Source: an uncultured delta proteobacterium (GTDB lineage: Bacteria > Desulfobacterota > Binatia > JACPRU01). Taken from it: a stretch of 64,000 nt of DNA. The stretch spans positions 128,001-192,000 of the forward strand of contig CAVUWD010000016.1 of assembly GCA_963745025.1 (NCBI GenBank), written 5' to 3'. The notes below the pieces were generated by a model. That model did not search any database. It saw only the letters and a program-made list of their open reading frames with translations, and was not told where the DNA came from. Below are positions 3,322 through 34,686 of this stretch, one piece after another. Position 1 is the stretch's first letter; every line of letters starts with the position of its first letter. Made by a program: the position numbers and the translations under genes.

Positions 3322-4469
3322 CATCCGGAACCGTGCCGCGAGCAACGGCGGAGGTGCTGCTTTGTCCGGGTCCCGTCATGCTCTCGCCGGGCGTCAAGGC
3401 GGCGCTCGCACAGTGCGAGATCGGCCACAGAGACGCGCGCTTCTCCGAGCTTGTCGCACGCCTGCGCCGCAACTGCGGCCTGGTGCTGGGTGCGAACGAA
3501 GGGCACAGCGTCGTCTTCATCACGGGTCCTGCGACGGCAGGAATCGAGGCGGCATGCGCGTCGCTTTTCCCGGCAGACGCGTCGGTGATCGTCCCGGTGA
3601 ACGGGACTTTCGGGGCGCGGATCGCGGACATCCTGAAGGTCCATGGTGTGCCTTGCGTTCCAATCGACTTCGGATTTGGGCAGCCTTTCGACCTCGCACG
3701 AATCAAGGCCGCGGTGACTGAGCAGCGCCGGGCGGGATTTCCGGCGGCTCTGGCGATGACGCACCACGAGACCTCCGCCGGCCTGATCAATCCGGTGGCC
3801 GAGGTCTGCGCGCTCGCGCGCCGCTACGGACTGAAGACACTGGTCGACGCGACGTGCAGCGCGGGTGCCGAAGACCTCGACGTCACGCGCGACGGGATCG
3901 ACGTGTGCATCACTTCTTCGGGGAAGTGCCTGCACGCTCCGCCGGGCGTCGCTCTCGTCTGCGTGCGCCGTGACATGCTCTCGGCGCGCGTCGGGGCGTC
4001 CCCGCGGAGCTACTCCCTGGACTTGTTGCGTCACCACGACCAACTCGAGGCAAATTTACAAACCCCGTTCACGCCTGCGGTTCCGCTGTTCGTCGCGCTG
4101 GACCGGGCCGTCGAGGAACTGCTGGGACAGGGAGTCGCGAACCGCCGCCGCTCGTACCTGCATCGCCGCGCTTTTCTCGCCGCGGGTCTGCGACGCCTCG
4201 GGCTGCCGCTACTCCGTCTGCCGGCGGGCAACGAGGCCTGCTCGATACTCACGGTCGGGGTTCCGCAGCCGCTTGGCTTCGACGCTATGTATCGGGCGAT
4301 GCGCGAACGGGGCTACGTCATCTACGGGGCTAAGCCGCCGCTGGCGCCGAACTATTTCCAGCTCGGCGTCATGGGAGACCTGACCGAAGCCGACCTGTCC
4401 GGTTTCCTCGAGGGACTCGAGTCTTTCCTCTCCAGGCCAGCCGGGCGTTGCAGCGCCGCGACGGCTTAG
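3318..4469 (+). CDS. Class V PLP aminotransferase (PhnW/AEP-transaminase-like)
   Basis: LLCPGP, HHETSAGLINP, VDAT, SSGKCL (PLP Lys), TPFTP; GTGA overlap with the upstream gene. Confidence 0.88.
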   Translation: MTSGTVPRATAEVLLCPGPVMLSPGVKAALAQCEIGHRDARFSELVARLRRNCGLVLGANEGHSVVFITGPATAGIEAACASLFPADASVIVPVNGTFGARIADILKVHGVPCVPIDFGFGQPFDLARIKAAVTEQRRAGFPAALAMTHHETSAGLINPVAEVCALARRYGLKTLVDATCSAGAEDLDVTRDGIDVCITSSGKCLHAPPGVALVCVRRDMLSARVGASPRSYSLDLLRHHDQLEANLQTPFTPAVPLFVALDRAVEELLGQGVANRRRSYLHRRAFLAAGLRRLGLPLLRLPAGNEACSILTVGVPQPLGFDAMYRAMRERGYVIYGAKPPLAPNYFQLGVMGDLTEADLSGFLEGLESFLSRPAGRCSAATA

Positions 4470-8547: not shown

Positions 8548-9179
8548 GTCTTCCAGTACATTCTTCGTCGCACGGCCACTCGCTGGCGGCTGATCTTCGC
8601 CCGTCCGTCGCCTTAAAGCCACCAACGCGGACCTTCGGCCGCAACCAAGGCGGCGGCGCCCGGGAGTGCCTGCATGACGCACCGCGAAAGTTCTTTGCAA
8701 GCCGCAAAGAATCTATACCATGAGGCGTACCACGAAGATGCTCGTATTTCAGGGCTCTCGTTGTCGCGAGAGAAGTTCGACCGCGTCATCGCGGCTGGTG
8801 AACGTGCCGCTACTTGTGCACTGGAGCGCGTCCCGGCGAGTTTGAAGGCTGCCACCACGCTGCGCGCCCGGATTTCGCGGCCAATTGGCAGCTCCGGGTC
8901 CAGGTGATACTCCTATTTCCAGAGTGAGGTGACCATGGGAACAAGAGTTCGTCTGTGGGGATCGATCGCGATGCTCTCGCTCGTCGCGCCGGTGACCGCC
9001 AGATCGCAGGCGCTCGCCCGCCCCAAGGGGGTACCGCAAAACGACCGTTGGGTGAGCTCATGCTCGCCCCGCTCTTTGCTGGGAGCGAATTTGGATTGCA
9101 TGCCGCTCAAGGTATGGCGATCCTCGTCATGGTTGCGGCACTGTGGGCCGCCGGTGGGCGAGCGGCATCGGAGCGGGAC

Positions 9180-9797
9180 ATGACACTTAAATTGCTCTTC
9201 TGGGGATTATTGGCGCTCGCAATTCCGGCGGAAATTTTCGCGGCGCCCTCGTACGACGGAAACTCCGGCGCGTTAAAAAACGCAGTTATTCTCATCATCC
9301 GGCACGCCGAAGAACCGGATGATGGCTATGGGTTGTCCCCAGTGGGCGACGCTCGCGCTCAGGCTTACGTTAATTATTTCAAGAATTTCACGGTTGACGG
9401 ACAGCCGTTGAAACTGGACTACCTGTTCGCCGCCAAGGATTCCCCCAACAGTCATCGCCCGCGCCTCACCATCGAACCGCTCGCCAAGGCACTCGGTCTC
9501 ACGGTTGACACCCGGTTCGATAACAAACAATTTCTGAAATTGGTCGATGAAATTCAGAGCCGGCCACACGGTACCAACATCTTGATCTGCTGGCATCACG
9601 GGACAATTCCCCAGCTACTGAGCGCGCTGGGTGCTGATCCCAAAAAACTCCTTCCCGACGGCAAATGGCCGGACGATGTGTTCGGCTGGCTGATTCAGTT
9701 GCGCTACGACGAGAACGGTCGTTTGTTTGAAAGTAAACGCATCAACGAAAATTTGTCATCTGATGATTCGGCCAAACATGTCCGGGCTGCGGCTTGA
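9180..9797 (+). CDS. Secreted histidine-phosphatase-superfamily protein
   Basis: Signal peptide, IIRHAE, LSPVG..RA, RPRLTIEPLA, ILICWHH; visibly more AT-rich than its flanks. Confidence 0.78.
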   Translation: MTLKLLFWGLLALAIPAEIFAAPSYDGNSGALKNAVILIIRHAEEPDDGYGLSPVGDARAQAYVNYFKNFTVDGQPLKLDYLFAAKDSPNSHRPRLTIEPLAKALGLTVDTRFDNKQFLKLVDEIQSRPHGTNILICWHHGTIPQLLSALGADPKKLLPDGKWPDDVFGWLIQLRYDENGRLFESKRINENLSSDDSAKHVRAAA

Positions 9798-9938
9798 TAA
9801 ACGCTTGTTGGCCGGCGATGGAGAAATAGACGCATTCTCAATTTTTCAGACACTCTGACTCCGGAACACGCAATTTCCTCTAGATGCGGAGAGGTGATAG
9901 GGCGAATCCCAACCAGTTCGGAAAAGACGGAGGAGATC

Positions 9939-10778
9939 ATGTCATCGCATCTGTCTCGCACGGGCCGCCATGGCGGAAGAGCGTTTGGCATCATCATCAC
10001 TTTCGCCATCACCGCGCTCGCGTACGTGTTGCCGCCGGCAGCGTTCGGCGCCAACCCCGTAGAAGAAATGGCCAAGCAAAAATTCTCCATTGGCGGCGGT
10101 ATAGACCCGCAGGGCGATTCGTGGCTCGCCATGCAGAACAGCTTCGAGCAGTTCCTGCATCCGGAGTTCGTTCTGCGACTCCTTCTTAGTTTAACGTTGG
10201 CGGTGGGTTGTGCGTGGGTGTTCGCGTGGCATCCGCGCCACTCGTCGCGCCTCGATTCGCTTTCCGACCTCGAGGAGCGCAACACGCTCGTCCTCCTTGG
10301 CATGGTCGGGGCGATCGTCGCGGAATTGAGCGGGACCAGCCAAACGCTCGCGTTTGTCATCTTCGGGATCGGAGCACTGCTGCGTTTCCGCACCGTGCTC
10401 GACAATCCGAAGCTCACCGGAAAAGCCATCACGGTCGTGGTGATCGGGCTCGCGTGCGGCATGGGGTCATGGGTGATGGCGATCTTCGTCACCGCTTTCA
10501 GCTGGATCCTCATCTTTTGGCTGGATTCACACATCGCCTGCCGGGTCCGGATCCGGCTCGCCGAGGACGTGGATCCGGAGGCGGTTTTTGGCAGGGTGCA
10601 ATCGTTGCTAGGCTCGCGCGGTTGTCGGCTGCAAAGTTCCGCGCTCTACAAAGACAAACGACGGTTGGTGTTCCTTCTGCACATTCCAGCGGGACTCGAC
10701 CTAGAACAATTGAAGTTGGATGTACGCGCGAATCTGCCGGAGGCCGATGACGCCCGGATTAATATTGATTTGGAGTGA
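9939..10778 (+). CDS. DUF4956/MgtC-like membrane protein
   Basis: GGAG RBS; LAFVIFGIGALLRFRT, IGLACGMG, C-terminal soluble domain. Confidence 0.7.
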   Translation: MSSHLSRTGRHGGRAFGIIITFAITALAYVLPPAAFGANPVEEMAKQKFSIGGGIDPQGDSWLAMQNSFEQFLHPEFVLRLLLSLTLAVGCAWVFAWHPRHSSRLDSLSDLEERNTLVLLGMVGAIVAELSGTSQTLAFVIFGIGALLRFRTVLDNPKLTGKAITVVVIGLACGMGSWVMAIFVTAFSWILIFWLDSHIACRVRIRLAEDVDPEAVFGRVQSLLGSRGCRLQSSALYKDKRRLVFLLHIPAGLDLEQLKLDVRANLPEADDARINIDLE

Positions 10779-10978
10779 ACGCGCGGACACGCGAGCGGCA
10801 GTGTGCTGGCTATCGCGCGGCCATCGCCGCGCGAGCTAGGAGACGATTGCTCGAATGCTGCAGTCCCGCCCTTCAGCACGTCGCGCAGGACTGGGTCGCG
10901 CTGGGCACGTCCAAGGCCGCCGCGGTATCGCTTGAAGGGCAACGCGCAGACGGCGCAGAGTGAGGTCTGACTGTCTTC

Positions 10979-11521
10979 ATGGACATCACGGCGCGCGATC
11001 TGCAATACGTCACCTCTCTGGAGGAAATCTGGTGGGGCGGAACGCTTGTTGCGCTCACCCTGGCCATGCACGGCTTCGGCATGATCTGGACGATGCACGC
11101 GACCAACGCGCTGAAACACCGGTTCGCGCGCAACCAGTCCTTCGCCCTCGGCATGGGCGTCATCATTCTCGCGAGCTGGATGATCATCCTCGTCCATCTC
11201 CTCGAGGTGGTACTGTGGGCCGGATTTTTCCTTTGGCGGGGTGCGATGCCCAACGGCAGCCTTTCCTACTACTTCGCATTGATGGACTACACAACGCTGG
11301 GCAGCAACTTCAACCTGCCGTTGCGCTGGCGCCTGCTCGAGGGCATGATCGCCATCGCCGGGCTGATGACGTTCGCCTGGTCCACCGGCGTGTTGCTGAC
11401 GCTGGCGCAGGAGTTCCAGGATCAGCAGCTGAAACGCCTCAAAGAGCGGCTGGGAAGACATTCGTCTAAATCGGGCTCGCCGCCGCCGCACCGGCCGGGG
11501 GACACGGAACACAGCGTCTGA
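10979..11521 (+). CDS. Ion-channel-like (Ion_trans_2) membrane protein
   Basis: YYFALMDYTTLG pore-helix-like motif, WRLLEGMIAIAGLMTFAWSTG; no GYG filter. Confidence 0.72.
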   Translation: MDITARDLQYVTSLEEIWWGGTLVALTLAMHGFGMIWTMHATNALKHRFARNQSFALGMGVIILASWMIILVHLLEVVLWAGFFLWRGAMPNGSLSYYFALMDYTTLGSNFNLPLRWRLLEGMIAIAGLMTFAWSTGVLLTLAQEFQDQQLKRLKERLGRHSSKSGSPPPHRPGDTEHSV

Positions 11522-11845
11522 TATCGAGGCGTTAAGTAGCTTTCGGACCCTCGTAGGTGGTGGAGAACTAGCGGGGCGAGCTTCTCCTCGGGGTTGGGCC
11601 GATGGACCTCAACACCCGGCAAGCCGCTTGGGCAGCTCGGCGACTCTCGTGTCGCGCGAAGACGACGTCGTCGGAGCTATCGCTCTCGCGGTCGATCGTG
11701 GCACGCATCGAGTCGATCGATTCGGGCTCGACGATCGCCCGTAAGACCGCCGCGGGCTAGGGGATCCGCTTCTCGACGGTCCTCGCCACCGGTGTTCCCG
11801 TAGCGGAGGACCAATCGGCTCGGTTACCCCGGCGTTCCGCCGGGG

Positions 11846-12415
11846 TCAGATCGAAGCGGCCTTCTGTGGGATCCTGCACGACGCCCCGATCGCGTCGACT
11901 CCTAGCGCGTAGACGAGCCGACCGTAGCCGATGAAGACGCTCGTACGCCAGCCGAGCTCGACGATCTGCTCCTCGGTGTAGTGAACACGCAGCTCGGCGA
12001 AGATCTCGTCGAACGGCGCTCGCTTGTGCTCGCCTGCCATCGCATCGGCGAGCTGCATCGCCGCCTTCTCAGCCGGGGTGAAGAGCGGACTTTCGCGAAA
12101 GTTCGGAACGGCGTCCACCATCTCGTCGGTCAAACCTTGATGCCTCGCCGAGGCATACACGGCACCCCTTCAAAGGGTGCACGCGTTGTGCACCGCCACG
12201 GTGTGGCGGACGAGCTCGGTCAGCTTCACGCTGAGGCCGTTCCCGTCGGTCATGATGCGCGAGTAGTAGAACTTCACGAAGTCCTCGTAGAGCGCGGCCG
12301 GGTGACAGAAGTACTGGATCCACTCCGAGCCACCGAGCGCATCGTCGCTCGCCTGAACGATCGCCTGGATCTCGGGCTCCATCTTCTCGTAGGGGACCGG
12401 TGCGACTCTCGGCAT
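11846..12415 (-). CDS. AhpD/carboxymuconolactone-decarboxylase-family probable selenoprotein (CTLU), in-frame UGA at 12170-12172
   Basis: ORFs 12170..12475 and 11846..12160 are in one frame: ...ELVRHTVAVHNACTL-UGA-RGAVYASARHQGLTDEM...; GGAGG RBS before the ATG at 12415. Confidence 0.88.
12140..12156 (-). promoter_or_regulatory. SECIS-like hairpin 1
   Basis: mRNA AUGCCUC-GGC-GAGGCAU beginning 13 nt after the UGA. Confidence 0.75.
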
Positions 12416-12438
12416 TGCGACCTCCCTGGTGACGGAAG

Positions 12439-13005
12439 CTATTTCGCTCGATCGGCCGGCGTGGGCAGCGGGCACGTCTTACCGATCTCGAGACCGAGCG
12501 TGTAGATGAAACGTCCGTAGCCGACGAACGTCACGATTCGCCAGCCGAGGTCGACGATTTCGGCTTCCGTGAAGTGCTCGCGCAGCTCGTCGAAGAGCTC
12601 GGGGCCAGCTTGTCGATGGTCTCCCGCGAGCACCTCGGCGTAGCGTACCGCCGCCTTCTCGCGCGGGGTGAGGAGCTTGCTCGCGCGGTACCGCGGGAGC
12701 TCGGCGATCATCTCCTCGGTGAGGCCTTGTCGCGCTGCCAGCGCGAACCGGGCACCCTTTCAAAGCTGGCAGCCGTTGATCTCCGCGACTTTCAGACGCA
12801 CGAGCTCGGTGAGCTTCATGTCGACCGTGCCGCGCGTCTCCGTGATGAGCGGGAAGTAGAAGCGGATGAAGGACTTGAACACCTCGGGCGCATGGGCGAA
12901 TACGCGCACGAACTCCGACCCGCCGAGCTCGTCGTCATAGTCGCGCATGACCGCCTGAAGCTCGGAATCGACGGCGTCGAAGGGCAAGTAACTGACGTGC
13001 GGCAT
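12439..13005 (-). CDS. AhpD/CMD-family probable selenoprotein (CQLU), in-frame UGA at 12760-12762
   Basis: ORFs 12760..13044 and 12439..12711 join in frame: ...ELVRLKVAEINGCQL-UGA-KGARFALAARQGLTEEMIAEL...; paralog of the neighbouring gene. Confidence 0.88.
12730..12746 (-). promoter_or_regulatory. SECIS-like hairpin 2
   Basis: mRNA UCGCGCU-GGC-AGCGCGA beginning 13 nt after the UGA. Confidence 0.75.
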
Positions 13006-13229
13006 GCGGATCCCTCTCTTGCGGCGAGACTTATCACCCGTCACCGATGGTCACAATCTCTTGTGAGGTCCGTGCGTATGGAATCATTACACCCCCGGAC
13101 CCGACGAGATCTCGCTCGCCTACAGCGAATCAAGGGAGCAACGCTTCGAACTCAGCGATCACTTCCTATCGGCCGATGGGTTCTCACCCTGGCAGCGGAC
13201 GTGCTAGGTCTGTGGCCGGGAGTCGAACA

Positions 13230-14213
13230 ATGCCAGAGCGTCAACTACGGATTCTCGAAGAGGGACAGGGGCAGTACCTGCCGGTCGACCCGGACGGCTT
13301 CCGCGATGCCACGGGGAAGAAGAGCCGCGCGCTCGTCTCGAAGCTCGTCAGCGCGCGCGAAGCGGTCGAGCGTTACGTCGCCGACGGCGACTACGTCGTG
13401 TGGGAGTGCAATTACCTCCAGCGCGGCCCGTCGGTGCTGATCCGCGAGATCGTCCGGCAGCGAAAGCGCCGGCTCTGGGCATGCGGCAAGTTCACCTGGG
13501 TGGCGATCGCGCTTCTCGTCGAGGCAGACTGCTGCGACCGCGCCGACATGGGCTTTTTCATGGGCGGCCCCGGGCTCAACCGAGCGGTGCTCGATGGCCG
13601 GCTCACCATCTACGAGTACAGCAACGTGGTGATGACCGCGCGGCTGCGCGCCGGCGCCATGGGCGCTACGTTCGTGCCGGTGCGCTCGCTCGGCGGCACC
13701 GACAACTTCCGCTACTCGGGCGCGAAGCTCATCGAGGATCCGTACACCGGCAAGCCCACCGTCGTGGTGCCAGCGCTGAACCCCGACGTCGCGCTGATCC
13801 ACGTCCACCAGGCCGACGTCTACGGCAACGCGCGGATCTTCGGTGCCGGCATCACCGACGTCGAGTCCGCGCTGGCGTCGAAGAAGGTCGTTCTCAGCGC
13901 CGAGGAGATCATCGACACCGAGGACATCCGCCACAACCCGGGCCTCACCAAGATCCCCTACTACGTCGTCGACGCCGTGGTGCATGCGCCGTTCGGCGCG
14001 TATCCGGGCGAGACCCCGGGTCGCTACGCCTCGGACACCGAGCACGTGGGCGAGGTCTTCCTGTCGATGCACTCCGGCAAGCTTGGCGAGTATCTCGAGA
14101 AGTGGGTGCGCTCGGTCGCCGACGATCGCGAGATGCTCGAGAAGCGGGTCGGCACCGCCAAGCTCGAATCGCTGCAACGGCGCTCGACGCGCAAGGAGGG
14201 GTTTCGGCCATGA
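13230..14213 (+). CDS. CoA-transferase subunit A (GctA/CatI-like)
   Basis: RAGAMGATFVPVRSLGGTD, VPALNPDVALIHVHQADVYGNA, VDAVVHAPFGAYP. Confidence 0.88.
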   Translation: MPERQLRILEEGQGQYLPVDPDGFRDATGKKSRALVSKLVSAREAVERYVADGDYVVWECNYLQRGPSVLIREIVRQRKRRLWACGKFTWVAIALLVEADCCDRADMGFFMGGPGLNRAVLDGRLTIYEYSNVVMTARLRAGAMGATFVPVRSLGGTDNFRYSGAKLIEDPYTGKPTVVVPALNPDVALIHVHQADVYGNARIFGAGITDVESALASKKVVLSAEEIIDTEDIRHNPGLTKIPYYVVDAVVHAPFGAYPGETPGRYASDTEHVGEVFLSMHSGKLGEYLEKWVRSVADDREMLEKRVGTAKLESLQRRSTRKEGFRP

Positions 14214-15106
14214 TCTCACGCGGACCTTGGAACGACGCCCCGAAGGCGGCGGCGTTCGCCGAGCGGGAGTTTCAGGTGTGCATCGCAGCGCGGCTCGTCG
14301 AGGACGCGCGTACCTACTGGGTGGCCGCGGGCGGAGGGCCGATGTACACGGTGCTGCTCGCCCGCCAGCTGTACGCGCCGAACGCGATCTACGTGACCGA
14401 GGACGGCATCGTCGCCGCCGAGCCCGTGCTGCCGCTCGACCCGGTGATGACCGTGGTGGCCGAGCGGCCGTCCTTTCGGGCCCTGCAGTGGACGACGATG
14501 AACGGCATCGGCGACCAGTGCGCGACCGGCTACATGGATTACGGAATCCTCAACACGCTGCAGCTCGACCCCTACGGCAACATCAACTCGACATGGGTCG
14601 GCCGTTATCCGCAGCAGGGCAAGCGCATCAACGGCCCGGGCGGCGCCGACACGATCGCCGCGCAGTGCCGGCGCGTGATGCTGCTCACCGACCACCACAA
14701 GCGGAAGTTCGTCGAGAAGGTCGACTTCGTCTCGTCGCCCGGCTTCCTCGACGGCTCGCCGGGGGCCCGCGAGCGGGCCGGGCTGCCTCGCGACACGGGT
14801 CCGTGGGCGGTCGTCACGAACTGGGCGGTATTCGACTTCGACGAGAACACGCATCGGCTGCGCCTGCGCGCGATCGCCCCGTTCGTGACGCTGGACCAGG
14901 TGCTCGGCGAGATGTCGTTCACCCCGGTGCTCGCCGACGCGATCGAAACGCTCGACGCGCCGACGGAGCGCGAGCTCGACGTGTTCCGTGCCGAGATGGA
15001 CACGCGCGGCCAATTCACCGACGCCAGCGACCACTGGATCATCCGCGAGGAGGATCGCTGGACGATGGTCGCCAAGGAGAAGCCGGCGGGCACCGGGCTC
15101 CTCTAA
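14210..15106 (+). CDS. CoA-transferase subunit B (GctB/CatJ-like)
   Basis: ATGA overlap; YVTEDG, QLDPYGNINST, GPGGAD, FVEKVDFVSSPG. Confidence 0.88.
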   Translation: MISRGPWNDAPKAAAFAEREFQVCIAARLVEDARTYWVAAGGGPMYTVLLARQLYAPNAIYVTEDGIVAAEPVLPLDPVMTVVAERPSFRALQWTTMNGIGDQCATGYMDYGILNTLQLDPYGNINSTWVGRYPQQGKRINGPGGADTIAAQCRRVMLLTDHHKRKFVEKVDFVSSPGFLDGSPGARERAGLPRDTGPWAVVTNWAVFDFDENTHRLRLRAIAPFVTLDQVLGEMSFTPVLADAIETLDAPTERELDVFRAEMDTRGQFTDASDHWIIREEDRWTMVAKEKPAGTGLL

Positions 15107-16227: not shown

Positions 16228-16980
16228 ATGAGGTATTCACTGCCGGAATTCGTACTGGCTTCCGGGGTTCCGGTCGATACCGTCCGCTACTATCAGACCC
16301 TCGGTCTGCTGCATCCGCCGCAGCACGAGGGGCGCAGCGCCGTCTACGAGGCCGCTCATCTCGATCGACTGCGGCTGATCCGCTCGATGTCGAAGCGCGG
16401 CCTGTCGCTCAAGGTGATCGGTATGCTGCTCAAGCGCGGCGGCGCAGGGCTCGAATCGGACCAAGCGTTGCTCACGGCGATCGAGGAAGAGGCGGCCGAG
16501 CCCTCGTACTCGCGCGCCGAGCTCGCGGCCGAGATCGGCGTTCCCCAATCCCTGTTGCTGTCGATCGAGAAGGCCGGGTTGGCCGAAGCACAGGAGCAGG
16601 AAGATGGCTCCACGCGCTACACCGAGTCCGACCTCAAGGCAGCGCGTGGCGCGCTCAAGCTCCTCGGATACGGCTTCCCGCTCACGCGGCTCCTGACGCT
16701 GGCGGTGCGACATCACCGCGCAACCCGCCGCTCGGTCGACGAGGCGATCGAGCTCTTCGACGCGCACGTCCGCAAGCGCAACGGTGCGCACGAGAATCCG
16801 GAGGACGTCGCTCGCGGGTTCAAGGAAATTCTGCCGCTGGTGACCGCCCTCGTCGCCCACCACTTCCAACGCCTGCTGATCAACCGGGCGCTAAAGCGAC
16901 TGAGGAAGAAGGGCGACCGCGACGCCCTGCAGGTGGCCGTCGAGGTGTCGGCCCGCACGCGGCTTGGGCTTCGCTGGTGA
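16228..16980 (+). CDS. MerR-family transcriptional regulator with two HTH-like repeats
   Basis: SGVPVDTVRYYQTLGLL...HLDRLRLI..GLSL; second repeat YSRAELAAEIGV...RYTESDL. Confidence 0.88.
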   Translation: MRYSLPEFVLASGVPVDTVRYYQTLGLLHPPQHEGRSAVYEAAHLDRLRLIRSMSKRGLSLKVIGMLLKRGGAGLESDQALLTAIEEEAAEPSYSRAELAAEIGVPQSLLLSIEKAGLAEAQEQEDGSTRYTESDLKAARGALKLLGYGFPLTRLLTLAVRHHRATRRSVDEAIELFDAHVRKRNGAHENPEDVARGFKEILPLVTALVAHHFQRLLINRALKRLRKKGDRDALQVAVEVSARTRLGLRW

Positions 16981-17696
16981 GCGCCGTGCTTCCACGAGCG
17001 GACGAGAAGCAAGCCCGAGTCGAGGCGATGTTCGATCGCATCGCGCATCGCTACGACCTCATGAACCGTCTGATGACGCTCGGCATCGACCGGGCCTGGC
17101 GGCGGACCACGATTGCCGCACTGCAGATCTCTCCGCGCGATCGTCTGATCGATCTCGCGTGCGGCACCGGCGATCTGGCGCTCGAGGGTGCGCGCGCGGG
17201 GGCGCGAGTGATCGGCTTCGACCTGTCGGCAGGCATGCTGCGCGAGGCGCGCGAACGCCGCATCGCCTGTGTGCTGGTACGGGGCGACGCGCTTTGTTTG
17301 CCGCTCGCCGATGCCTGCTGCGACGCCGTAGTCTCGGGCTTCGCGCTGCGGAACTTCGCGGATGTGGCCGTCGCGTTCGCGGAGGCCGCACGCGTCCTGA
17401 AGCCGGACGGGCGGTTGGCGCTCCTCGAGGTCGACACGCCGGGGAGCCGGCTCCTTCGCTGCGGTCATCGGCTCTACTTCCACCACGTCGTTCCGCTCCT
17501 CGGCCGGCTTCTCTCCGACGGCGACGCCTACTCCTACCTGCCGGCCTCGGTGGCGTACTTGCCGGCAGAGCGGGCCCTCCGCGAGATGCTCCAAGCCGCG
17601 GGCTTTCGGTCGATCGAGAAACGTCGGCTGTCGGGCGGCGTGGCCCAGCTCGTGACGGCTCGACGCAGCCGAGAGCGAGAGGACGACGGTGCGTGA
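16977..17696 (+). CDS. menG: Demethylmenaquinone methyltransferase
   Basis: MFDRIAHRYDLMNRLMTLGID, DLACGTGD, FALRN, AYSYLPAS. Confidence 0.9.
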   Translation: MSAVLPRADEKQARVEAMFDRIAHRYDLMNRLMTLGIDRAWRRTTIAALQISPRDRLIDLACGTGDLALEGARAGARVIGFDLSAGMLREARERRIACVLVRGDALCLPLADACCDAVVSGFALRNFADVAVAFAEAARVLKPDGRLALLEVDTPGSRLLRCGHRLYFHHVVPLLGRLLSDGDAYSYLPASVAYLPAERALREMLQAAGFRSIEKRRLSGGVAQLVTARRSREREDDGA

Positions 17697-19008
17697 TCGG
17701 CTCCACAGCGCGCAGGAGCGCTCGAAGCTCCGGCCCGCGGAACTCCTGGCACTCGCCGGTGCGACTCCCGAAACGCCGATCTTCCATTTGGAAAAGCCGG
17801 TCGAAGGGCTCGCGCTGCTCGCGCTCGGCGCCGCTTGGGAAATCCGCACGTCGGGCGTGGAGCGATTCGGCGAGGCGTCGCGGGCGGCGATCGAAGCGCT
17901 CGCGCGGCTGCCGCGATCGACCGATCCGCGTTTCGGCCCGCTCGTGCTCGGCGGCTTCGGGTTCTCGGACGCGGATTGTCTCGAGCCGGGATGGCGTGAG
18001 TTCCCGTCCGCCCGGCTGTGGATCCCGGAGCTTCTCTGGGTTCGGCGCGGTGGCGAATGTCGACTGACGCGGATCTGGCGAGACGGAGCGCAGCGTGACA
18101 TCGAGCGGCGCTTGTACAGGGCGACCCAAGCGGCGTCTGGCGCGGCTGCGCACGGTGTGCGATCGGCGACGCGCGTTCGCCCCGATCCGGACGAGCGGCG
18201 TCGCTGGGGCGAGCGGGTCGAAGCCGCCTGCGCGCGGATCGCCGCGGGCGGGCTGGACAAGGTGGTGCTCGCCCGCCGCCGCGTGATGCATCTCGACCCG
18301 GCCGCGGAGCCCGTGGCGATCCTCCGCGCGGCGCGCCGCCGCCGCCCATCGTGCTTCAACTTCTGGATCGGCGGACGGGAGACGAGCTTCGTCGGATCGA
18401 GCCCCGAGCGGCTCGTCGCACTCGACGGCGACCGCTTCGTCGCGGGCGCGCTCGCCGGCTCGGCGCCGCGGGGGCGCCGTGTTGGCGAGGACGAGCGGCT
18501 GGGCGAAGCGCTGCTCGCCTGCCCGAAGAATCGCCGCGAGCACGAGCTGGTGGTCACCGCGGTGCGCGAATCCCTCGCCCCGGTCAGCGCCTCGTTGCGA
18601 GTCGGCGAGCACCCGACGTTGCGACGCCTCCCCGAAGCGCAGCACCTCACGACGCCGATCACCGGCCGGCTCGCGGAGCGCCTCACGGTCCTCGACCTCG
18701 CGGGGCTTCTTCATCCCACGCCCGCCGTGTGCGGCGTACCGCGCGACACCGCCCGTCGCCTGATCGAGCAGCAAGAACCGGGACGGGGATGGTTCACCGG
18801 CGCGGTCGGTTGGATGGCGGAAAATGGCGCGGGTGAGATCGCCGTCGCGCTCCGCTCGGTTCTCATCGATGGCGCTGCGGCCACCGTTTGGGCGGGTGCC
18901 GGAATCGTCAGTGGATCGAGCGCCGAAGCCGAGTTCTCCGAGACCGAGGCCAAGATGAGCGCTCTCTTCGAGACGCTCGCTGCCACCGCCGATGAGTACG
19001 CTGCGTAA
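17689..19008 (+). CDS. menF: Isochorismate synthase
   Basis: KVVLAR, GSSPERL, KNRREH, LHPTPAVCG, ALRS, AGAGIV. Confidence 0.9.
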   Translation: MRDRLHSAQERSKLRPAELLALAGATPETPIFHLEKPVEGLALLALGAAWEIRTSGVERFGEASRAAIEALARLPRSTDPRFGPLVLGGFGFSDADCLEPGWREFPSARLWIPELLWVRRGGECRLTRIWRDGAQRDIERRLYRATQAASGAAAHGVRSATRVRPDPDERRRWGERVEAACARIAAGGLDKVVLARRRVMHLDPAAEPVAILRAARRRRPSCFNFWIGGRETSFVGSSPERLVALDGDRFVAGALAGSAPRGRRVGEDERLGEALLACPKNRREHELVVTAVRESLAPVSASLRVGEHPTLRRLPEAQHLTTPITGRLAERLTVLDLAGLLHPTPAVCGVPRDTARRLIEQQEPGRGWFTGAVGWMAENGAGEIAVALRSVLIDGAAATVWAGAGIVSGSSAEAEFSETEAKMSALFETLAATADEYAA

Positions 19009-20764
19009 CCCGAACCGCCGCATGGGGCAGGCGATCGCCGAGGAGCTCGAGCGCTCGGGGGTCGTCAGCGCCTGCATCTCCCCGGGTTCGCGATCCACCC
19101 CGCTGGCGCTCGCCCTCGACGCCGCTCCCGGTATCCGAGTGTTCGTCGTGACCGACGAGCGATCGAGCGGCTTCTTTGCTCTCGGGCTCGCCCGCGAGGA
19201 GCGCCGACCGGTGGCGCTGCTCTGCACGTCGGGGACGGCGGCGGCGAACTATCTCCCGGCGATCGTCGAAGCGTCGCTCGCCCGGGTCCCGCTGATCGTG
19301 CTCACCGCCGATCGGCCGCCGGAGCTTCGCGACTGCGGCGCGCCGCAGACGATCGCTCAGGCGAGCCTGTTCGCCGGACACGTGCGCTGGAGCTTCGACG
19401 TGCCGGCTCCGACCGCGGGCGTCGATCTGGATCGTCTCTACCGCACGCTGGCGTGCCGCGCGGTCGCGGCGGCGCTGGAGTGGCCGGGCGGTCCCGTCCA
19501 TCTCAACCTGCCGATGCGCGAGCCGCTCCTCGACGTGGAAGAGGAAGTCACGATCGTCGCCGTGGAGCGGGGCGCCGCGGAGGCTCGACCGTTCACGACC
19601 GTGCACGCGGCGCGTGCGGTGACCGCGCCGCAGACGCTCGAGCGGTTGGCGCGGACGCTCGAGGAACGAGAGCGCGGGCTGATCGTCGGCGGCCCCGGCA
19701 CCGACGCTGCGGCGGCCGGTGAGATCGCGCTCCTCGCGCGGGCTCTCCGCTGGCCGATTCTCGCGGACCCGCTCTCGGGGCTGCGCTTCGGCTCGCACGA
19801 TCGCTCCGCGCTCGCCGATAGCTACGACGTCTTGCTGCGCGACCGCGAGTTCGCCGCAGCGCACGCTCCGGACGCGATCCTGCAGATCGGCTCGCTTCCC
19901 GCCTCCAAGCCGCTCGCGCAATTCCTCGGGGAGGCGCCCCGCAGCTGCCATGTGATGGTGGCGGCGCCCGGCAGCTGGCCCGATCCGCTTCACCGCGCGA
20001 CCGACGTCGTGCGCGCCGCTCCGCAGGAGCTCTGTGCGGCGCTCGCCGCGCGGCTCCCGGCGCGGCCGTCGACCTCTCCCTGGCTCGACGATTGGCTCGA
20101 GAGCTCCGTGGCGTTGAGAGCCGCGCTCGACGACGAGGTCGCGGCCGTCGACGAGGTGCTCGAGGGAAAGCTCTTCCCGCTGCTTTGCGACCGCCTGCCG
20201 GGGGAAAGCCTCGTGGTGTTGGGCAACAGCATGCCCGTGCGTGACGCCGACACCTTTCTCGGCTCGAGCGATCGCGCGCTTCGCTTTTGCGGCAATCGCG
20301 GCGCGAGCGGCATCGACGGCGTGACGTCCAGCGCGCTCGGGGCGGCGGCGGCGCGACGCGAGCCGACCGTCCTCGTGGTCGGCGACCTGAGCTTCCTCCA
20401 CGACCTCGGCGCGCTGCAGATCGCCGCGCGCTATGCGGTCCCGCTCCTCATCGTCGCGGTTCACAACGACGGCGGGGGCATCTTTTCGTTCTTGCCGCAG
20501 GCTCGGCTCGACGGTCCCTTCGAGGCGCTCTTCGGGACCCCGCACGGGCTCGAGCTGGAGCCCGCGGTCCGCATGTGCGGAGGACGTCACGTGCGGGTCG
20601 CCTCATGGCGGGGATTCGCGGCCGCGATCGACGCGGCGCTCGGCGAGCGCGAACTCTCCGTGGTCGAGCTCGCGAGTGACCGTGCGCGGAACCACACGCT
20701 CCGCGAACGGACGATCGCGGCGGCGCTCGCGCGCTGGCGGCGTCGCCGGGAGTACGCGGCGTGA
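18992..20764 (+). CDS. menD: SEPHCHC synthase
   Basis: SPGSRSTPL, DERS, CTSGTAAAN, NRGASGIDG, GDLSFLHD, NDGGGIF. Confidence 0.95.
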   Translation: MSTLRNPNRRMGQAIAEELERSGVVSACISPGSRSTPLALALDAAPGIRVFVVTDERSSGFFALGLAREERRPVALLCTSGTAAANYLPAIVEASLARVPLIVLTADRPPELRDCGAPQTIAQASLFAGHVRWSFDVPAPTAGVDLDRLYRTLACRAVAAALEWPGGPVHLNLPMREPLLDVEEEVTIVAVERGAAEARPFTTVHAARAVTAPQTLERLARTLEERERGLIVGGPGTDAAAAGEIALLARALRWPILADPLSGLRFGSHDRSALADSYDVLLRDREFAAAHAPDAILQIGSLPASKPLAQFLGEAPRSCHVMVAAPGSWPDPLHRATDVVRAAPQELCAALAARLPARPSTSPWLDDWLESSVALRAALDDEVAAVDEVLEGKLFPLLCDRLPGESLVVLGNSMPVRDADTFLGSSDRALRFCGNRGASGIDGVTSSALGAAAARREPTVLVVGDLSFLHDLGALQIAARYAVPLLIVAVHNDGGGIFSFLPQARLDGPFEALFGTPHGLELEPAVRMCGGRHVRVASWRGFAAAIDAALGERELSVVELASDRARNHTLRERTIAAALARWRRRREYAA

Positions 20765-21720
20765 TCCGGCGGCTTCAGGTTCGCGGCCGCACCGTCGAAC
20801 TCGCCGACGAAGGGGCGAGCGGCGCTCCTGCCGTCGTCCTTCTCCACGGCTTCACCGGCAGCAAGAACAGCTGGCGGACGCTCCGCCGGGAGTTGCGGGG
20901 ACGATACCACGTGGTGGCGATCGACCTTCCCGGGCATGGCGGCACGCCGGCCGCGCGCGATCGGCACGCCGACTCGCTCTGGCGCGCCGCCGATCTCGTC
21001 GTCCGAGCGCTTCAGGCAATCGCGGTCGAGCGGTTCTCGCTGGTCGGTTACTCGATGGGCGGACGGCTCGCGCTCGGGCTTGCGCTCGCGCATCCGCAGC
21101 GCGTCGAGCGCCTTCTCCTGGAGAGCGCGTCCCCGGGTCTCGCGGGGGCGGAGGAGCGCGCCGTGCGGCGTGACGCCGACGAGGGGCTCGCCCGTCTGCT
21201 CGATCGCGAAGGCATCTCGAGCTTCGTCCGGTCCTGGGAGCGGATGCCGCTCTTCGCAACCTTCGCGCGGCTGCCCGATGCCGTTCGCACGGACCTTCGG
21301 CGCCAGCGGCTCGCCTGCTCGCCGCGTGGCCTCGCCGCGTGTTTACGCGCGCTCGGTACCGGGAGCCAGCCCTGGCTCGGCAACCGGCTGAGCGAGCTCT
21401 CGCTCCCGGTGACGATCGTGGTCGGCAGCCGCGACGATAAGTTCCGCGCGATCGGCGCCTGGATGCGGAGCCGACTGCTCGCCGCGCGGCTCGAGATTGT
21501 GCCCGCCGCAGGGCACGCGCCACACCTCGAACGCCCGCAGCGGTACGGCGCGATCGTCGCGCAGTTCCTGAGCGTGGGCGATTCGGCAAAGGAGGACAAT
21601 CGATGCGCTGGGAAACGGTTCGTGAGTACGAGGACATCACCTTTCGGCGTGCCGAAGGCATCGCTCGGATCGCGATCAACCGCCCGGAGGTGCGCAATGC
21701 CTTCCGGCCGCAGACGGTGA
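20761..21720 (+). CDS. menH: SHCHC synthase (alpha/beta hydrolase)
   Basis: LHGFTG, GYSMGGR, ESASPG, AGHAPH; C-terminus overlaps menB. Confidence 0.9.
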
Positions 21721-22415
21721 CGGAGCTGATCGACGCGTTCGCGCGCGCGCGAGAGGACTCTTCCGTCGGTGTGGTGATCCTGACGGGCGAGGGCAGCGAG
21801 GCCTTCTGCAGCGGTGGCGATCAACGCGTGCGGGGCGAAGCGGGATACGTCGGCGGGGATGGCGTGCCGCGGCTGAACGTCCTCGATCTGCAGAAGGCGA
21901 TCCGCAGCCTGCCGAAGCCGGTGATCGCCATGGTCGCCGGCTATGCGATCGGTGGCGGCCACGTGCTCCACGTCGTCTGCGACCTGACGATCGCCGCCGA
22001 CAATGCGGTGTTCGGTCAAACCGGCCCGCGCGTCGGCAGCTTCGACGGGGGGTTCGGCGCGGGTCAGCTGGCGCGACTCGTCGGCCAGAAAAAGGCGCGC
22101 GAGGTGTGGTACCTCTGCCGCCGGTACGATGCGCGCAAGGCGTTGGCCATGGGCCTGGTGAACGAGGTCGTTCCGCTCGCGGAGCTCGAAGAGACGACGG
22201 TGGGCTGGTGCCGCGAAATTCTCGCGCAGAGTCCGATGGCGCTCCGCTGCTTGAAATCGGCGTTCAACGCCGAGCTCGACGGCATGGCCGGCATCCAGGA
22301 ACTCGCTGGCAACGCCACGTTGCTCTTTTACATGACCGAAGAGGGGCAGGAGGGACGCAACGCGTTTCTCGAGAAGCGAGAGCCCGACTTCCAGCGGTTT
22401 CCACGACTTCCCTGA
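21603..22415 (+). CDS. menB: 1,4-dihydroxy-2-naphthoyl-CoA synthase
   Basis: RNAFRP, FCSGGDQ, GYAIGGG, VGSFDGG; AAGGAGG RBS. Confidence 0.97.
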
Positions 22416-22428
22416 AGCGCTCTGCGCC

Positions 22429-23298
22429 GTGCCGACTCCACTCGTCGCCTGGCTCGCCGCCGCCCGCCCGCGGACGCTCTCCGCGGCGCTCGCTCCCGTG
22501 GCCGTCGGCCTCGCGGTGGCGATGCGGGAGCACCCGATGGATTGGCTGACAGCCGCTGCCACGCTGGTCGCGGCGCTGCTCATCCAGGTCGGCACGAACC
22601 TCGCGAACGACTACTACGACTTCGTGAACGGCGCCGACACGCCGGATCGGCTCGGACCGTCTCGCATCACTCAAGCCGGTCTCGCCTCGCCGGCGGCCGT
22701 GCGGCGTGCGGCACTCACGGTCCTCGCGCTCGCCGGCGGAGTCGGCGTCTATCTGGTGGAGATCGGCGGCTGGCCGATCCTGACGATCGGCGTGCTGTCG
22801 CTGATGTCCGCGCTCGCCTACACCGGCGGGCCGTGGCCACTCGCCTCCCATGGGCTCGGCGAGGTGTTCGTCTTCCTTTTCTTCGGCGTAATCGCCGTCA
22901 ACGGCACCGTCTGGCTGCAGACGGGGGAGGCCTCGATGCTCGCGCTCTTCGCCTCGTTGCCCGTGGCCTGCCTGGCGACGGCGATCCTGGTGATCAACAA
23001 CCTCCGCGACATCCCGACCGATGCCCGCGCCGGCAAGCGAACGCTCGCGGTGCGGCTCGGCGCCACGGCGACGCGCGGCGAATACCTGCTGCTCGTCACG
23101 GCCGCGTTTCTCTGCGCGATGCTGCTGTCGCGGCTCGCCGGACCACGCGTGCTGCTGACGCTCGGCGCGCTGCCGCTCGCCCTCGTCGAAGCCCGGGCGC
23201 TCCCGCGGCGCACGGGAGCGGAGCTCAACCGGAGCCTCGCCGGAACCGCGCGCCTGCATCTGGTCTTCGGCGTGCTGCTGGCGATCGGTCTCGCATGA
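22429..23298 (+). CDS. menA: DHNA polyprenyltransferase
   Basis: AARPRTL, NLANDYYD, NNLRDIPTD..GKRTLAVRLG. Confidence 0.94.
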   Translation: MPTPLVAWLAAARPRTLSAALAPVAVGLAVAMREHPMDWLTAAATLVAALLIQVGTNLANDYYDFVNGADTPDRLGPSRITQAGLASPAAVRRAALTVLALAGGVGVYLVEIGGWPILTIGVLSLMSALAYTGGPWPLASHGLGEVFVFLFFGVIAVNGTVWLQTGEASMLALFASLPVACLATAILVINNLRDIPTDARAGKRTLAVRLGATATRGEYLLLVTAAFLCAMLLSRLAGPRVLLTLGALPLALVEARALPRRTGAELNRSLAGTARLHLVFGVLLAIGLA

Positions 23299-28844: not shown

Positions 28845-29315
28845 GTGATCCGCATAACCAAACTCACCGATTACGGGATCGTGCTGCTCACGCACTTCGC
28901 GCGCCATCCCGAGCGGCTGACGCGCAACGCGCCGGAGATCGCGGCGGCGGCACGCCTGCCGCTACCGACCGTGAGCAAGATCCTGAAGATTCTCGCTCGC
29001 GAGGGGCTTCTGGTGCCGCACCGCGGCGCCAAGGGTGGATTCAGCCTCGCCCGTTCCCCGCGAGACATCACAGTGGCCGATATCATCAGCGCGTTCGAGG
29101 GGCCGATTGCGCTCACCGAATGTAACACCCATGGCGCGGACCGATGCGGCATCGAGTCGCTCTGCCCGGTGAGCACGAACTGGCAGCGTATCAACCGCGC
29201 CGTGCTGGACGCGCTCAGCGGGGTCACGCTCGCGGAGATGGCCTCGCCGCGCCCGGCTCTGCCCCCCCTGCTCGCGTCGCGGGGCTCCCGCGCCGAGGCG
29301 CGAACAGGATCCTAA
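28845..29315 (+). CDS. Rrf2-family SUF Fe-S regulator
   Basis: [23 protein letters not shown], three Cys (EC...RC.....CP). Confidence 0.92.
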
Positions 29316-29332
29316 CCGCGTTGGAGACGCTC

Positions 29333-30790
<1,458 letters not shown>

Positions 30791-30795
30791 TGGAA

Positions 30796-30879
30796 CGGCT
30801 ACCGGCTACCGCCTTCCGACTACCGCAAAAGACCCCAAGAAGGCTTTGCCGGTAGTCGGTAGCCGGAAGCCGGAAGCCG
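30796..30879. repeat. Heptamer-armed palindrome, copy 1
   Basis: (CGGCTAC)-like units, a spacer, then (GTAGCCG/GAAGCCG)-like units. Confidence 0.8.
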
Positions 30880-30890
30880 AAGGGAGTCGA

Positions 30891-31646
30891 ATGCTACTCG
30901 AAATTCGCAATCTCCACGTGAGCATCGACGGCAAGCCGATTCTCCGCGGTCTCGACCTCGCGGTCGCCGAAGGCGAAGTCCACGCCGTCATGGGCCCGAA
31001 CGGCTCGGGTAAGTCGACGCTTGCGCAGGTGCTCGCGGGGCATCCCGCCTACGAGGTGACCGCGGGAGAGGTCTTCTACCTCGGCACGAACCTGCTCGAG
31101 ATGCCCGCCGAGAAACGGGCGCGGGAGGGCATTTTTCTCGCCTTTCAGTATCCGGTCGAGATCCCGGGAGTGGCAAACGCATACTTCCTGCGCGCGGGGT
31201 TGAACGAGATCCGCGCGTACCGAGGGCTCGAGGAGCTCGACGCCATGGAGTTCCTGGCGCTCCTCAAGGAAAAGCTGAAGATCGTCGATATGGACTCAGC
31301 GATGATGTCGCGGGCCGTGAACGAGGGGTTCTCCGGCGGCGAGAAGAAGCGGAACGAGATCCTGCAGATGGCGGTGCTCGAGCCGAAGCTGGCGATCCTC
31401 GACGAAACCGACTCGGGGCTCGACATCGATGCGCTGCGTGTGGTGGCGACGGGAGTCGAGAAGCTTCGTCGTCCCGACAACGCCACGATCCTCGTCACGC
31501 ACTACCAGCGGCTGCTCAACTACATCACGCCGGATCACGTGCACGTGCTCTATCGGGGCCGGATCGTGAAATCGGGCGGCAAGGATCTCGCGCTCGCGCT
31601 CGAGGCCAAGGGCTACGACTGGCTCCGCGAGGAAGCGGCGACGTGA
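30891..31646 (+). CDS. sufC: Fe-S assembly ATPase SufC
   Basis: GPNGSGKST, FQYPVEIPG, FSGGEKKRNE, DETDSGLD. Confidence 0.97.
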   Translation: MLLEIRNLHVSIDGKPILRGLDLAVAEGEVHAVMGPNGSGKSTLAQVLAGHPAYEVTAGEVFYLGTNLLEMPAEKRAREGIFLAFQYPVEIPGVANAYFLRAGLNEIRAYRGLEELDAMEFLALLKEKLKIVDMDSAMMSRAVNEGFSGGEKKRNEILQMAVLEPKLAILDETDSGLDIDALRVVATGVEKLRRPDNATILVTHYQRLLNYITPDHVHVLYRGRIVKSGGKDLALALEAKGYDWLREEAAT

Positions 31647-32971: not shown

Positions 32972-34230
32972 GAGCCGTGCGTGGAACGAGCTCTGCGGTA
33001 GAGGCCGGAGCACGATTCGACGTCGAGCGAATCCGGCGAGATTTCCCGGTGCTGCAGCGCAAGGTGCACGGCAAGCCGCTCGTGTACCTCGACAATGCCG
33101 CGACCAGTCAAAAGCCGAAGGCGGTGATCGATACGCTGACGCGCTACTATTCCGAGTTCAACTCGAACATCCACCGCGGTATCCATCAACTGAGCGAAGA
33201 GGCCACGAGCGCATACGAGGACGCTCGCGCCAAGGTGAAGAGCTTCCTGAACGCGGCCGATGAGCGTGAGATCGTGTTCGTGCGCGGCACGACCGAGGCG
33301 ATCAACCTGGTCGCGCAGAGCTACGGCCGGGCGTTCGTCAAGCCCGGCGACGAGATCGTGATCACGGCGATGGAGCACCATTCGAACATCGTGCCGTGGC
33401 AGCTCCTCGGGGAGCAGACGGGCGCGCGGCTGCGCGTCGTGCCCATCAACGACGAAGGCGAGCTGCTGATCGACGAGCTCGAGCCGATGCTCACCGGCAA
33501 GACCCGGTTGATCGCCGTCGCTCACGTGTCGAACGCCCTCGGAACCGTCAATCCGGTCAAGCGGATCGCGAAGATCGCACACCGGCGCGGCATCCCCGTG
33601 CTCGTCGACGGAGCGCAAGCCGTGCCGCACATGAAGGTCGACGTCCAGGATCTCGACTGCGACTTCTACGCGTTCTCCGGCCACAAGATGTACGCGCCGA
33701 CCGGTATCGGCATCCTGTACGGCAAGTCCCGTTGGCTCGAGAAGATGCCGCCCTACCAGGGCGGCGGCAGCATGATCAGCCTGGTGACGTTCGAGAAGAC
33801 GCACTACAACGTGCCGCCTTACAGGTTCGAGGCGGGCACTCCCGACATCGCCGGCGGCATCGGCCTCGGTGCGGCGATCGACTATCTGAACGCCATCGAT
33901 CTCGAAGCGGCCGCCGCCTACGAGCAGGAAGTACTGGCCTATGGCACCGAGGTGCTCTCGGCGATCGAGGGACTGCGCCTAATCGGTCAGGCGAAGGCCA
34001 AGGCGAGCGTGCTCTCGTTCGTGCTCGAGGGCGTTCATCCGCACGACATCGGTACGATCCTCGATCGCGAGGGAGTGGCGATTCGTGCCGGCCATCACTG
34101 CGCGATGCCGGTCATGCAGCGCTTCGGCGTGCCGGCCACGGCGCGCGCATCCTTGGCCTTTTACAACACGAAGCAGGAAATGGACGCGCTCGGTCGCTCC
34201 ATCCGCAGGGTGAGAGAGGTGTTCTGCTGA
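32968..34230 (+). CDS. sufS: Cysteine desulfurase SufS
   Basis: YLDNAATSQKP, FSGHKM, RAGHHCA. Confidence 0.97.
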   Translation: MRAVRGTSSAVEAGARFDVERIRRDFPVLQRKVHGKPLVYLDNAATSQKPKAVIDTLTRYYSEFNSNIHRGIHQLSEEATSAYEDARAKVKSFLNAADEREIVFVRGTTEAINLVAQSYGRAFVKPGDEIVITAMEHHSNIVPWQLLGEQTGARLRVVPINDEGELLIDELEPMLTGKTRLIAVAHVSNALGTVNPVKRIAKIAHRRGIPVLVDGAQAVPHMKVDVQDLDCDFYAFSGHKMYAPTGIGILYGKSRWLEKMPPYQGGGSMISLVTFEKTHYNVPPYRFEAGTPDIAGGIGLGAAIDYLNAIDLEAAAAYEQEVLAYGTEVLSAIEGLRLIGQAKAKASVLSFVLEGVHPHDIGTILDREGVAIRAGHHCAMPVMQRFGVPATARASLAFYNTKQEMDALGRSIRRVREVFC

Positions 34231-34676: not shown

Positions 34677-34686
34677 GGATAGAGTC

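Follow-up and report, generated by a model that had tools for sequence, protein, structure and literature searches.

Two adjacent CMD/AhpD-like genes with an in-frame TGA at the second redox cysteine probably encode selenoproteins in an uncultured member of the Binatia

Our analyses support the occurrence of two adjacent, paralogous selenoprotein genes, hereafter A and B, in a 64,000-nucleotide window (the whole stretch of DNA analysed, positions 128,001 to 192,000 of contig CAVUWD010000016.1) from an uncultured delta proteobacterium assigned to the Binatia. With a probability that we put at roughly 0.85, both are full-length CMD/AhpD-like proteins of about 21 kDa in which codon 82, a TGA, specifies selenocysteine (Sec). 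On this reading the annotation of the region is corrected from four fragments to two complete redox enzymes. The genes and their internal TGA codons are located as follows:

12439..13005, minus strand: gene A, probable CMD/AhpD-like selenoprotein, 188 amino acids and a TAG stop (translation, Pfam, AlphaFold2 [AF2] model, Foldseek)
11846..12415, minus strand: gene B, probable paralogous CMD/AhpD-like selenoprotein, 189 amino acids and a TGA stop (translation, Pfam, paralogy to A)
12760..12762, minus strand: putative Sec-UGA of gene A, codon 82 (translation, aligned codon in related loci)
12170..12172, minus strand: putative Sec-UGA of gene B, codon 82 (translation, aligned codon in related loci)

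Under genetic code table 11 the region is called as four short open reading frames (ORFs; 12760..13044, 12439..12711, 12170..12475 and 11846..12160), which become two frames once the TGA is read through. A preliminary description of this DNA had joined the same four ORFs into two paralogs of about 188 residues, each with one TGA at an equal position and with similarity on both sides of it, and this holds: the proteins have 188 and 189 residues, the TGA is codon 82 in both, and A and B share 46% identity over 186 residues (E 3e-63), unbroken through the TGA. The limits it gave are also exact, 13005 marking the ATG of gene A and 11846 the final base of the stop codon of gene B. The motif around codon 82 is NGCQL-U-KGA in A (C79-Q-L-U82) and NACTL-U-RGA in B (C79-T-L-U82). 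A six-frame scan of the window for TGA codons lying between two stop-free stretches of 50 codons or more with coding-type G+C content at third and second codon positions (GC3/GC2) returned two sites in 64 kb, codons 82 of A and B only; the two-gene readthrough pattern is more than chance.

Evidence on the meaning of these codons comes from related genomic loci. One genome per species was scanned, and the best 80 of 126 loci with relatives, retrieved by similarity to gene A, were used; at least 14 assemblies hold two A-type copies at distant loci, so that the 80 loci represent about 66 assemblies. The codon aligned to U82 is TGA in 77 of the 80, TGC (Cys) in three (a Nevskia, a Rhodospirillales and a gammaproteobacterial metagenome-assembled genome, MAG) and TGG in none. 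Because the motif pattern of the scan demanded a Cys or Trp codon, TGA loci could enter through the other, C-terminal pattern only, and the count is therefore unbiased toward TGA. The B-type genes found beside A-type genes in two loci (L001 and L023) also carry TGA at this codon. Protein identity to the relatives ranges from 57 to 90% and runs across the TGA. The closest loci (85-90% identity) belong to 'delta proteobacterium' MAGs, a 90%-identical database fragment is labelled Candidatus Binatia, and most of the related loci are assigned to Candidatus Binatia or Binataceae. The phylogeny used here is a quick tree with poorly supported deep branches, from which no conclusion on Sec versus Cys ancestry was drawn.

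Four short ORFs are also what would be seen if the TGAs were inactivating mutations or sequencing errors and A and B were pseudogenes. Decay does occur in the family: one locus (L056:1929-2486, plus strand) carries, besides its Sec-TGA, a TAG in place of the invariant Glu67 codon, and may be a decaying copy or contain a misread base. Nevertheless, both paralogues and 77 of the 80 loci (from about 66 assemblies) share a TGA at this position, and the sequence to its left and right shows purifying selection. The TGA exactly replaces the second Cys of a CxxC motif, and a covarying hairpin lies 3' of it. As judged from sequence, the 77/80 count effectively refutes this explanation, which keeps next to no probability.

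The hairpins that follow the UGA codons resemble the selenocysteine insertion sequence (SECIS) of bacteria:

12724..12753, minus strand: SECIS-type hairpin of gene A, in which a GGC apical loop caps an upper stem of eight pairs containing one bulged U, above a lower stem of 3 bp (folding, covariation)
12134..12163, minus strand: SECIS-type hairpin of gene B, with an AUGCCUC/GAGGCAU stem and a GGC loop, positioned in register with hairpin A (folding, covariation)

A hairpin is present 3' of the UGA in every TGA locus examined. In both A and B it starts 11 nt past the UGA and its loop 20 nt past it; the core of hairpin A is CGCGCU-GGC-AGCGCG, from which the stem of B differs by compensatory changes. 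The minimum free energy (MFE) is -15.1 kcal/mol for A, equalled by 11 of 200 shuffles, and -13.8 kcal/mol for B, equalled by 4 of 200. According to the part of a 2026 review that sets out the bacterial SECIS (bSECIS) model, such elements have a loop of 3-9 nt with a G within its first two positions, an upper stem of 4-16 bp, a UGA-to-loop distance of 16-37 nt and an MFE no higher than -7.5 kcal/mol (PMC13188914). With their 3-nt GGC loop, 7-8-bp upper stem, 20-nt spacing and MFE, hairpins A and B fall within all four of its constraints.

Conservation of the structure was assessed in 71 sequences (47 distinct). The 11-pair structure pairs in 88% of cells, versus 25-50% with slid 3' partners, and in five of its 11 pairs both partners vary. 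At 0.234, the covariation score exceeds the shuffled mean of 0.109, and none of 500 shuffles reaches it. Since the shuffles take no account of relatedness and the 71 sequences include many close kin, such scores are not probabilities; the slid-partner controls, in which relatedness is preserved, point the same way. Pairing in the 7-bp core extends to 327 of 329 cells, and none of its pairs changes on one side alone. Taken with the TGA in 77 of 80 loci and the existence of Cys homologues, the covarying SECIS-type hairpin supports the interpretation, already made in the preliminary description, of a UGA at the second Cys as selenocysteine. The Rfam search at gathering thresholds gave no match in the window and is uninformative; bacterial SECIS elements are poorly covered in Rfam.

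Ten gammaproteobacterial loci (L052, L064, L068 and L074-L080; about positions 4254-4277 in most) have the hairpin 3 nt nearer to the UGA, with 4-nt loops (GGUC, AGUU or AGGU) and no indel in the protein. This shifted hairpin pairs in 91% of cells, with one covarying pair and a score reached by 8 of 500 shuffles. By this pattern, the RNA structure in the gammaproteobacterial clade is rebuilt within the same coding frame.

Public protein entries bear the marks of the same codon. Among the 120 matches listed for A, only 13 are near full length, with Cys (nine) or Trp (four) in the U column, and about 90 are pieces of 103-133 amino acids, some named 'hypothetical protein'. Fifteen database proteins were inspected: 12 start at the first start codon past the TGA, two stop at C-x-L, immediately ahead of it, and one is chimeric (P0120, a 272-residue call in which glutathione S-transferase-like domains are fused to the C-terminal third of an A-type protein, and which looks artefactual near the UGA). 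The 79 matches for B are likewise mostly halves, with a single Cys form (P0125); another B-type gene model (P0124) has a 9-residue gap exactly over the U site and also looks like a gene-calling artefact. The earlier expectation that standard pipelines would split such genes thus agrees both with the four ORFs of table-11 calling and with the halves in public gene calls, and the error is systematic in public data, affecting about 90 half-length A-type entries among the matches listed and most of the 79 B-type matches. Homologues with Cys aligned to U, a search for which had been proposed as a check, do exist for both genes: the residue is Cys in nine close and nine distant protein clusters related to A, in the B-type form above and in the three TGC loci. 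Among the names that JGI gives to homologues are 'alkylhydroperoxidase family enzyme', which we take to be the COG2128 name, and 'AhpD family alkylhydroperoxidase'.

The four Trp forms (clusters P0013-P0016, C-F-L-W) could be taken to mean that the organism translates TGA generally as one of the standard amino acids, for example Trp or Gly, A and B then being ordinary genes under another code. They come from contigs of 1.0-1.8 kb and, in the quick tree, nest among TGA-bearing gammaproteobacterial loci, which fits a gene caller having chosen a code-4 model (TGA=Trp); the Trp is probably a TGA translated in this way. TGA is, moreover, the usual stop in this DNA, ending 28 of the 34 Pfam-supported ORFs in the window, and it terminates 45 of 80 family genes, in both cases at lengths matching homologues, and gene B too. 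That just two in-frame TGAs in 64 kb have a two-sided coding signal is further evidence against a reassigned codon, as is the lack of TGG in all 80 loci. An alternative code is thus extremely improbable here.

Both proteins belong to the CMD family (PF02627), with Pfam scores of 49.4 bits for A and 43.1 bits for B, where the cut-off is 23. Even the best-scoring NCBIfam models stay under their curated cut-offs: the peroxidase-related enzyme TIGR01926 (A 44.1, B 31.6 bits; cut-off 81.8), the YciW-related (seleno)protein NF053654 (71.1 and 62.3; 310) and the GSU3128 family (seleno)protein NF041047 (21.1 and 18.4; 110). A and B therefore constitute a separate subfamily. The AF2 model, made for gene A only from a 51-row alignment (L056 being omitted for its extra stop), is all-helical, with a predicted local distance difference test score (pLDDT) of 90.2, a predicted template modelling score of 0.84 and the tail 175-182 as its sole uncertain part. 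Foldseek matched the model at a probability of 1.00 to 2prr, 2ijc, 6k40, 7xw1 and 6ohj, with template modelling (TM) scores of 0.77 for 2prr, 0.76 for the Deinococcus radiodurans AhpD 6k40 and 0.75 for the debrominase Bmp8 (6ohj), and a sequence profile search of the PDB recovered the same AhpD-like entries. The AhpD-like fold first suggested from the redox motif is supported by the CMD matches of both proteins and, for A, by the model and its structural neighbours.

The part of the AhpD literature covering its active site describes a relay of Glu, Cys-x-x-Cys and a His at +4, in which the two Cys and the His are called invariant and most essential, and a partnership with AhpC, the two genes being often adjacent (PMC3141380). 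In our family, Glu67, 12 residues before the first Cys, is found in 83 of 84 sequences, the exception being the stop codon of L056. CxxU is the motif of 81 sequences and CxxC that of three, and all 84 have a tail Cys (G-x-x-C-P/S/R). A profile alignment to PA0269 of Pseudomonas aeruginosa places C79 and U82 on Cys48 and Cys51. Gene A combines Glu67 with Arg86 and tail Cys178, and gene B combines Glu67 with Val86 and a tail Cys.

Besides the second stop codon of L056 and the kinship behind the covariation scores, several observations weigh against the selenoprotein reading or against parts of it. Judged one sequence at a time, the hairpins outdo shuffles only to a moderate degree (z of -1.6 for A and -2.6 for B), and 63-nt pieces give z of -0.7 and -1.4. 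The three Cys-form loci (L018:4253-4282, L046:2754-2783 and L047:4253-4282) also fold into a stable, different hairpin of -12 to -16 kcal/mol, with another stem and a loop start without G, so that hairpin potential alone does not discriminate. The notion that Cys forms lack a hairpin was accordingly rejected: only the GG-loop SECIS geometry is missing from them, and their hairpin could be a fossil SECIS or merely GC-rich coding sequence. With regard to the protein, the relay-His position 86 holds Arg in 81 of the 84 family sequences and Val in three, all of them B-type, and His is absent; the tail Cys lies within a segment of pLDDT below 50 in the gene A model, which does not fix its distance to the active site.

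None of selA, selB, selC and selD was found in the 64-kb window (no tRNA, no Rfam match, no Sec-machinery Pfam domain in the 57 ORFs scanned), and ARAGORN detected no tRNA there or in the 60 of the 80 related loci that were scanned; because the window covers about 1% of a genome of this kind, the absence of sel genes from the window says little. No AhpC/peroxiredoxin domain occurs among the 57 window ORFs scanned, and no peroxiredoxin or redox partner among 22 representatives of recurrent neighbour families and nine neighbours from the closest loci, so that a function in AhpC recycling is unsupported by context.

With no Sec machinery seen within the window and Cys forms of the family that evidently work, the UGA might instead be read through without selenium, either by hairpin-stimulated near-cognate decoding or by insertion of Cys via the Sec pathway, leaving Cys or Trp at position 82. 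Yet the hairpin agrees with the bSECIS model in its particulars, among them the spacing and a loop that begins with GG, and the UGA falls exactly at the redox Cys position, as in catalogued CxxU AhpD-like selenoproteins. It would, furthermore, be hard to explain why TGA is kept in 77 of 80 loci if a single change to TGC gave the same product. We therefore regard selenium-free readthrough as very unlikely.

If genes A and B are selenoprotein genes, UGA codon 82 would be decoded by the standard bacterial mechanism, in which the hairpin 11 nt downstream, with its GG-starting apical loop, would act as the bacterial SECIS and recruit SelB together with Sec-tRNA(Sec). The C-x-x-U redox centre would then stand where the second helix of the conserved AhpD pair begins, with Sec in place of the second Cys of the CxxC motif. 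Fold and motif point to a thiol/selenol-disulfide oxidoreductase of antioxidant type, cycling between selenol/thiol and selenenylsulfide at C79 and U82, which might serve as the reductant of a peroxiredoxin-like partner or attack hydroperoxides itself. Sec82 would be the attacking residue; in Mycobacterium tuberculosis AhpD, the second Cys is reportedly the nucleophile. Possible roles are stabilisation of the selenolate for Arg86 and, for the tail Cys, resolution of the selenenylsulfide or relay of electrons.

A bolder version of this proposal takes the lack of the relay His at face value. The pair would then be a His-less CMD selenoenzyme that does not recycle AhpC, with the work split between Arg-type A and Val-type B subunits, a different chemistry and the standing of a main selenoprotein of Candidatus Binatia. 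Each chain would offer three redox residues (Cys79, Sec82 and the mobile tail Cys), possibly within a mixed oligomer, and the candidate reactions would be direct peroxide reduction by an Arg-activated selenolate, in a peroxiredoxin-like manner, or reductive detoxification of small molecules as by Bmp8. We consider this combination improbable as a whole.

The occurrence of selenoproteins of this general kind has been described previously. Zhang, Gladyshev and co-workers listed in 2005 an 'AhpD-like protein' (COG2128) and a 'CMD domain-containing protein' (Pfam02627), both CxxU selenoproteins, from the Sargasso Sea (PMC1088965). In the sections of the 2008 Global Ocean Sampling survey concerned with these families, 'AhpD-like 1' (COG2128) is the fourth most abundant, with 299 selenoproteins and 902 Cys homologues, 'AhpD-like 2' (pfam02627) is commoner in non-marine samples, and one read carries adjacent Prx-like 1 and AhpD-like 2 genes (PMC2398784). 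The portion of the 2026 review on CxxU families names AhpD-like (TIGR01926), CMD-like (PF02627), AhpD-related (NF041238) and a distant AhpD homologue (NF041047) (PMC13188914), and BSepDB is described as having an AhpD-like family page (PMC13326102). Our literature search combining Binatota and selenocysteine found no report of selenocysteine use in Candidatus Binatia, the word selenocysteine appearing solely within the references of the paper retrieved.

Compared by description and models only, A and B share with the catalogued CxxU AhpD-like/CMD selenoproteins the PF02627 domain, the Sec at the second Cys, the Cys homologues and the SECIS just past the UGA, and differ in their sub-cut-off scores, their provenance mostly from Candidatus Binatia or 'delta proteobacterium' MAGs and, here, the tandem arrangement. 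With AhpD of M. tuberculosis and PA0269 of P. aeruginosa (2ijc, 2o4d, 7xw1), they have in common the all-helical fold and the Glu(-12)...C-x-x-C helix pair as these appear in the published account of the enzyme (PMC3141380), with 30-31% identity to PA0269 over about 140 aligned positions. They differ from both by Sec in place of the second Cys, Arg or Val in place of the relay His, the tail Cys, the lack of a nearby ahpC, and some 40 additional N-terminal residues, which the 2prr/2oyo type also has. The best full-length structural matches are with 6k40 and the 'uncharacterized peroxidase-related' proteins of TIGR01926 type (2prr, 2oyo, 2pfx, 3c1l), of similar length (about 185-195 amino acids), with TM scores of 0.72-0.77 over 174-195 aligned columns; the identity is only 18-20%, the TIGR01926 scores are below the cut-off, and those matches are Cys proteins. 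Bmp8 (6ohi, 6ohj) has the CMD fold and a similar length as well (TM 0.73-0.75, profile E 6e-08), at 17-19% identity, but acts on a bromopyrrole in a biosynthetic cluster, with nothing alike near A and B. Its dehalogenation mechanism is thiol-based.

The novelty of A and B is consequently modest: they belong, as what amounts to a sub-threshold subfamily, to an established kind of selenoprotein, and the points of modest interest are the relay without His, the A/B tandem and the tail Cys found in every sequence. The finding opens no new kind of system. The family would nonetheless imply selenocysteine use, and hence a need for selenium, in these lineages, and its natural Sec/Cys pair in an AhpD-like scaffold without the relay His could show what Sec buys in this fold. 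Since no curated NCBIfam model reaches its cut-off, a dedicated one would allow the subfamily to be recognised as selenoproteins in Binatia and related MAGs.

The arrangement of the two genes raises the question of whether they act together, possibly as the heteromer that the preliminary description proposed. Sequence elements around them are:

13011..13018, minus strand: purine-rich, Shine-Dalgarno-like GAGAGGGA, 5' of the gene A ATG (read from sequence)
12421..12427, minus strand: Shine-Dalgarno-like AGGGAGG, 5 nt 5' of the gene B ATG, inside the 23-nt A-B spacer (read from sequence)
11827..11845, minus strand: GC-rich hairpin with an 8-bp stem and a GAA loop, directly 3' of the gene B stop, a possible terminator without T-run (read from sequence)

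A scan for consensus promoters and terminators between 11400 and 13400 found none, the hairpin 3' of B being unreported because it has no T-run. With a spacer of 23 nt, the Shine-Dalgarno motif within it and a GC hairpin after B only, A and B probably form one transcript.

This probable co-transcription is in keeping with an obligate heteromeric selenoenzyme made of A and B, as are the recurrence of the tandem in L001, the B-type gene adjoining an A-type gene in L023 (in divergent orientation) and the Val of B versus the Arg of A at position 86, which could mean divided work. In 78 of the 80 loci, however, the A-type gene is alone, and the 4 kb to each side of it contain no B-type gene, although these loci were retrieved by similarity to A and a distant B-type gene would escape. 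At least 14 assemblies have two distant A-type copies, A and B each keep the full set of Glu, CxxU and tail Cys, and the solved CMD/AhpD-like proteins covered in the structural account of AhpD are homo-oligomeric (PMC3141380). The full catalytic sets in both proteins and the lone A-type loci make an obligate heteromer unlikely. By analogy with CMD proteins, which usually do so, A and B probably each form homo-oligomers; a mixed A/B oligomer is possible and is not required.

Neighbourhoods of the family vary between clades, and the most frequent neighbour family, a housekeeping Leu/Phe-tRNA protein transferase, occurs in 20 of 81 loci (the 80 and the window). In the window, which has a G+C content of 67%, gene A is divergent from two coenzyme A (CoA) transferase subunits (13047-15106, plus strand) that are not conserved in related loci; the first likely starts at ATG 13231, leaving a shared upstream region of about 225 nt. 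Three ORFs whose coding signal is good (8955-9797, 9894-10778 and 10979-11521, within 8955-11521, plus strand) lie downstream of gene B in convergent orientation and have no Pfam match at E <= 0.001; the second and third are membrane-protein-like by sequence.

Further along, a menaquinone-type cluster (16977-23298, plus strand) comprises a UbiE/MenG-like methyltransferase, a MenF-like chorismate-binding enzyme, a MenD-like thiamine diphosphate enzyme, a MenB-like member of the enoyl-CoA hydratase family and a MenA-like UbiA prenyltransferase. The regions 29144-35244 and 49573-60857 (plus strand) hold a Suf operon for iron-sulfur assembly (SufB, SufC, SufD, SufS and FeS_assembly_P) and an outer-membrane/lipid A block (BamA, OmpH, FabZ-like, LpxA-like, LpxI, an MsbA-like ABC exporter and a Kdo transferase), the latter indicating a diderm organism. 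In one related locus only, that of the closest tandem pair, a sulfur-handling gene with a 2-thiouracil desulfurase domain and DUF1722 lies just upstream of the A-type gene (L001:2634-3869, plus strand).

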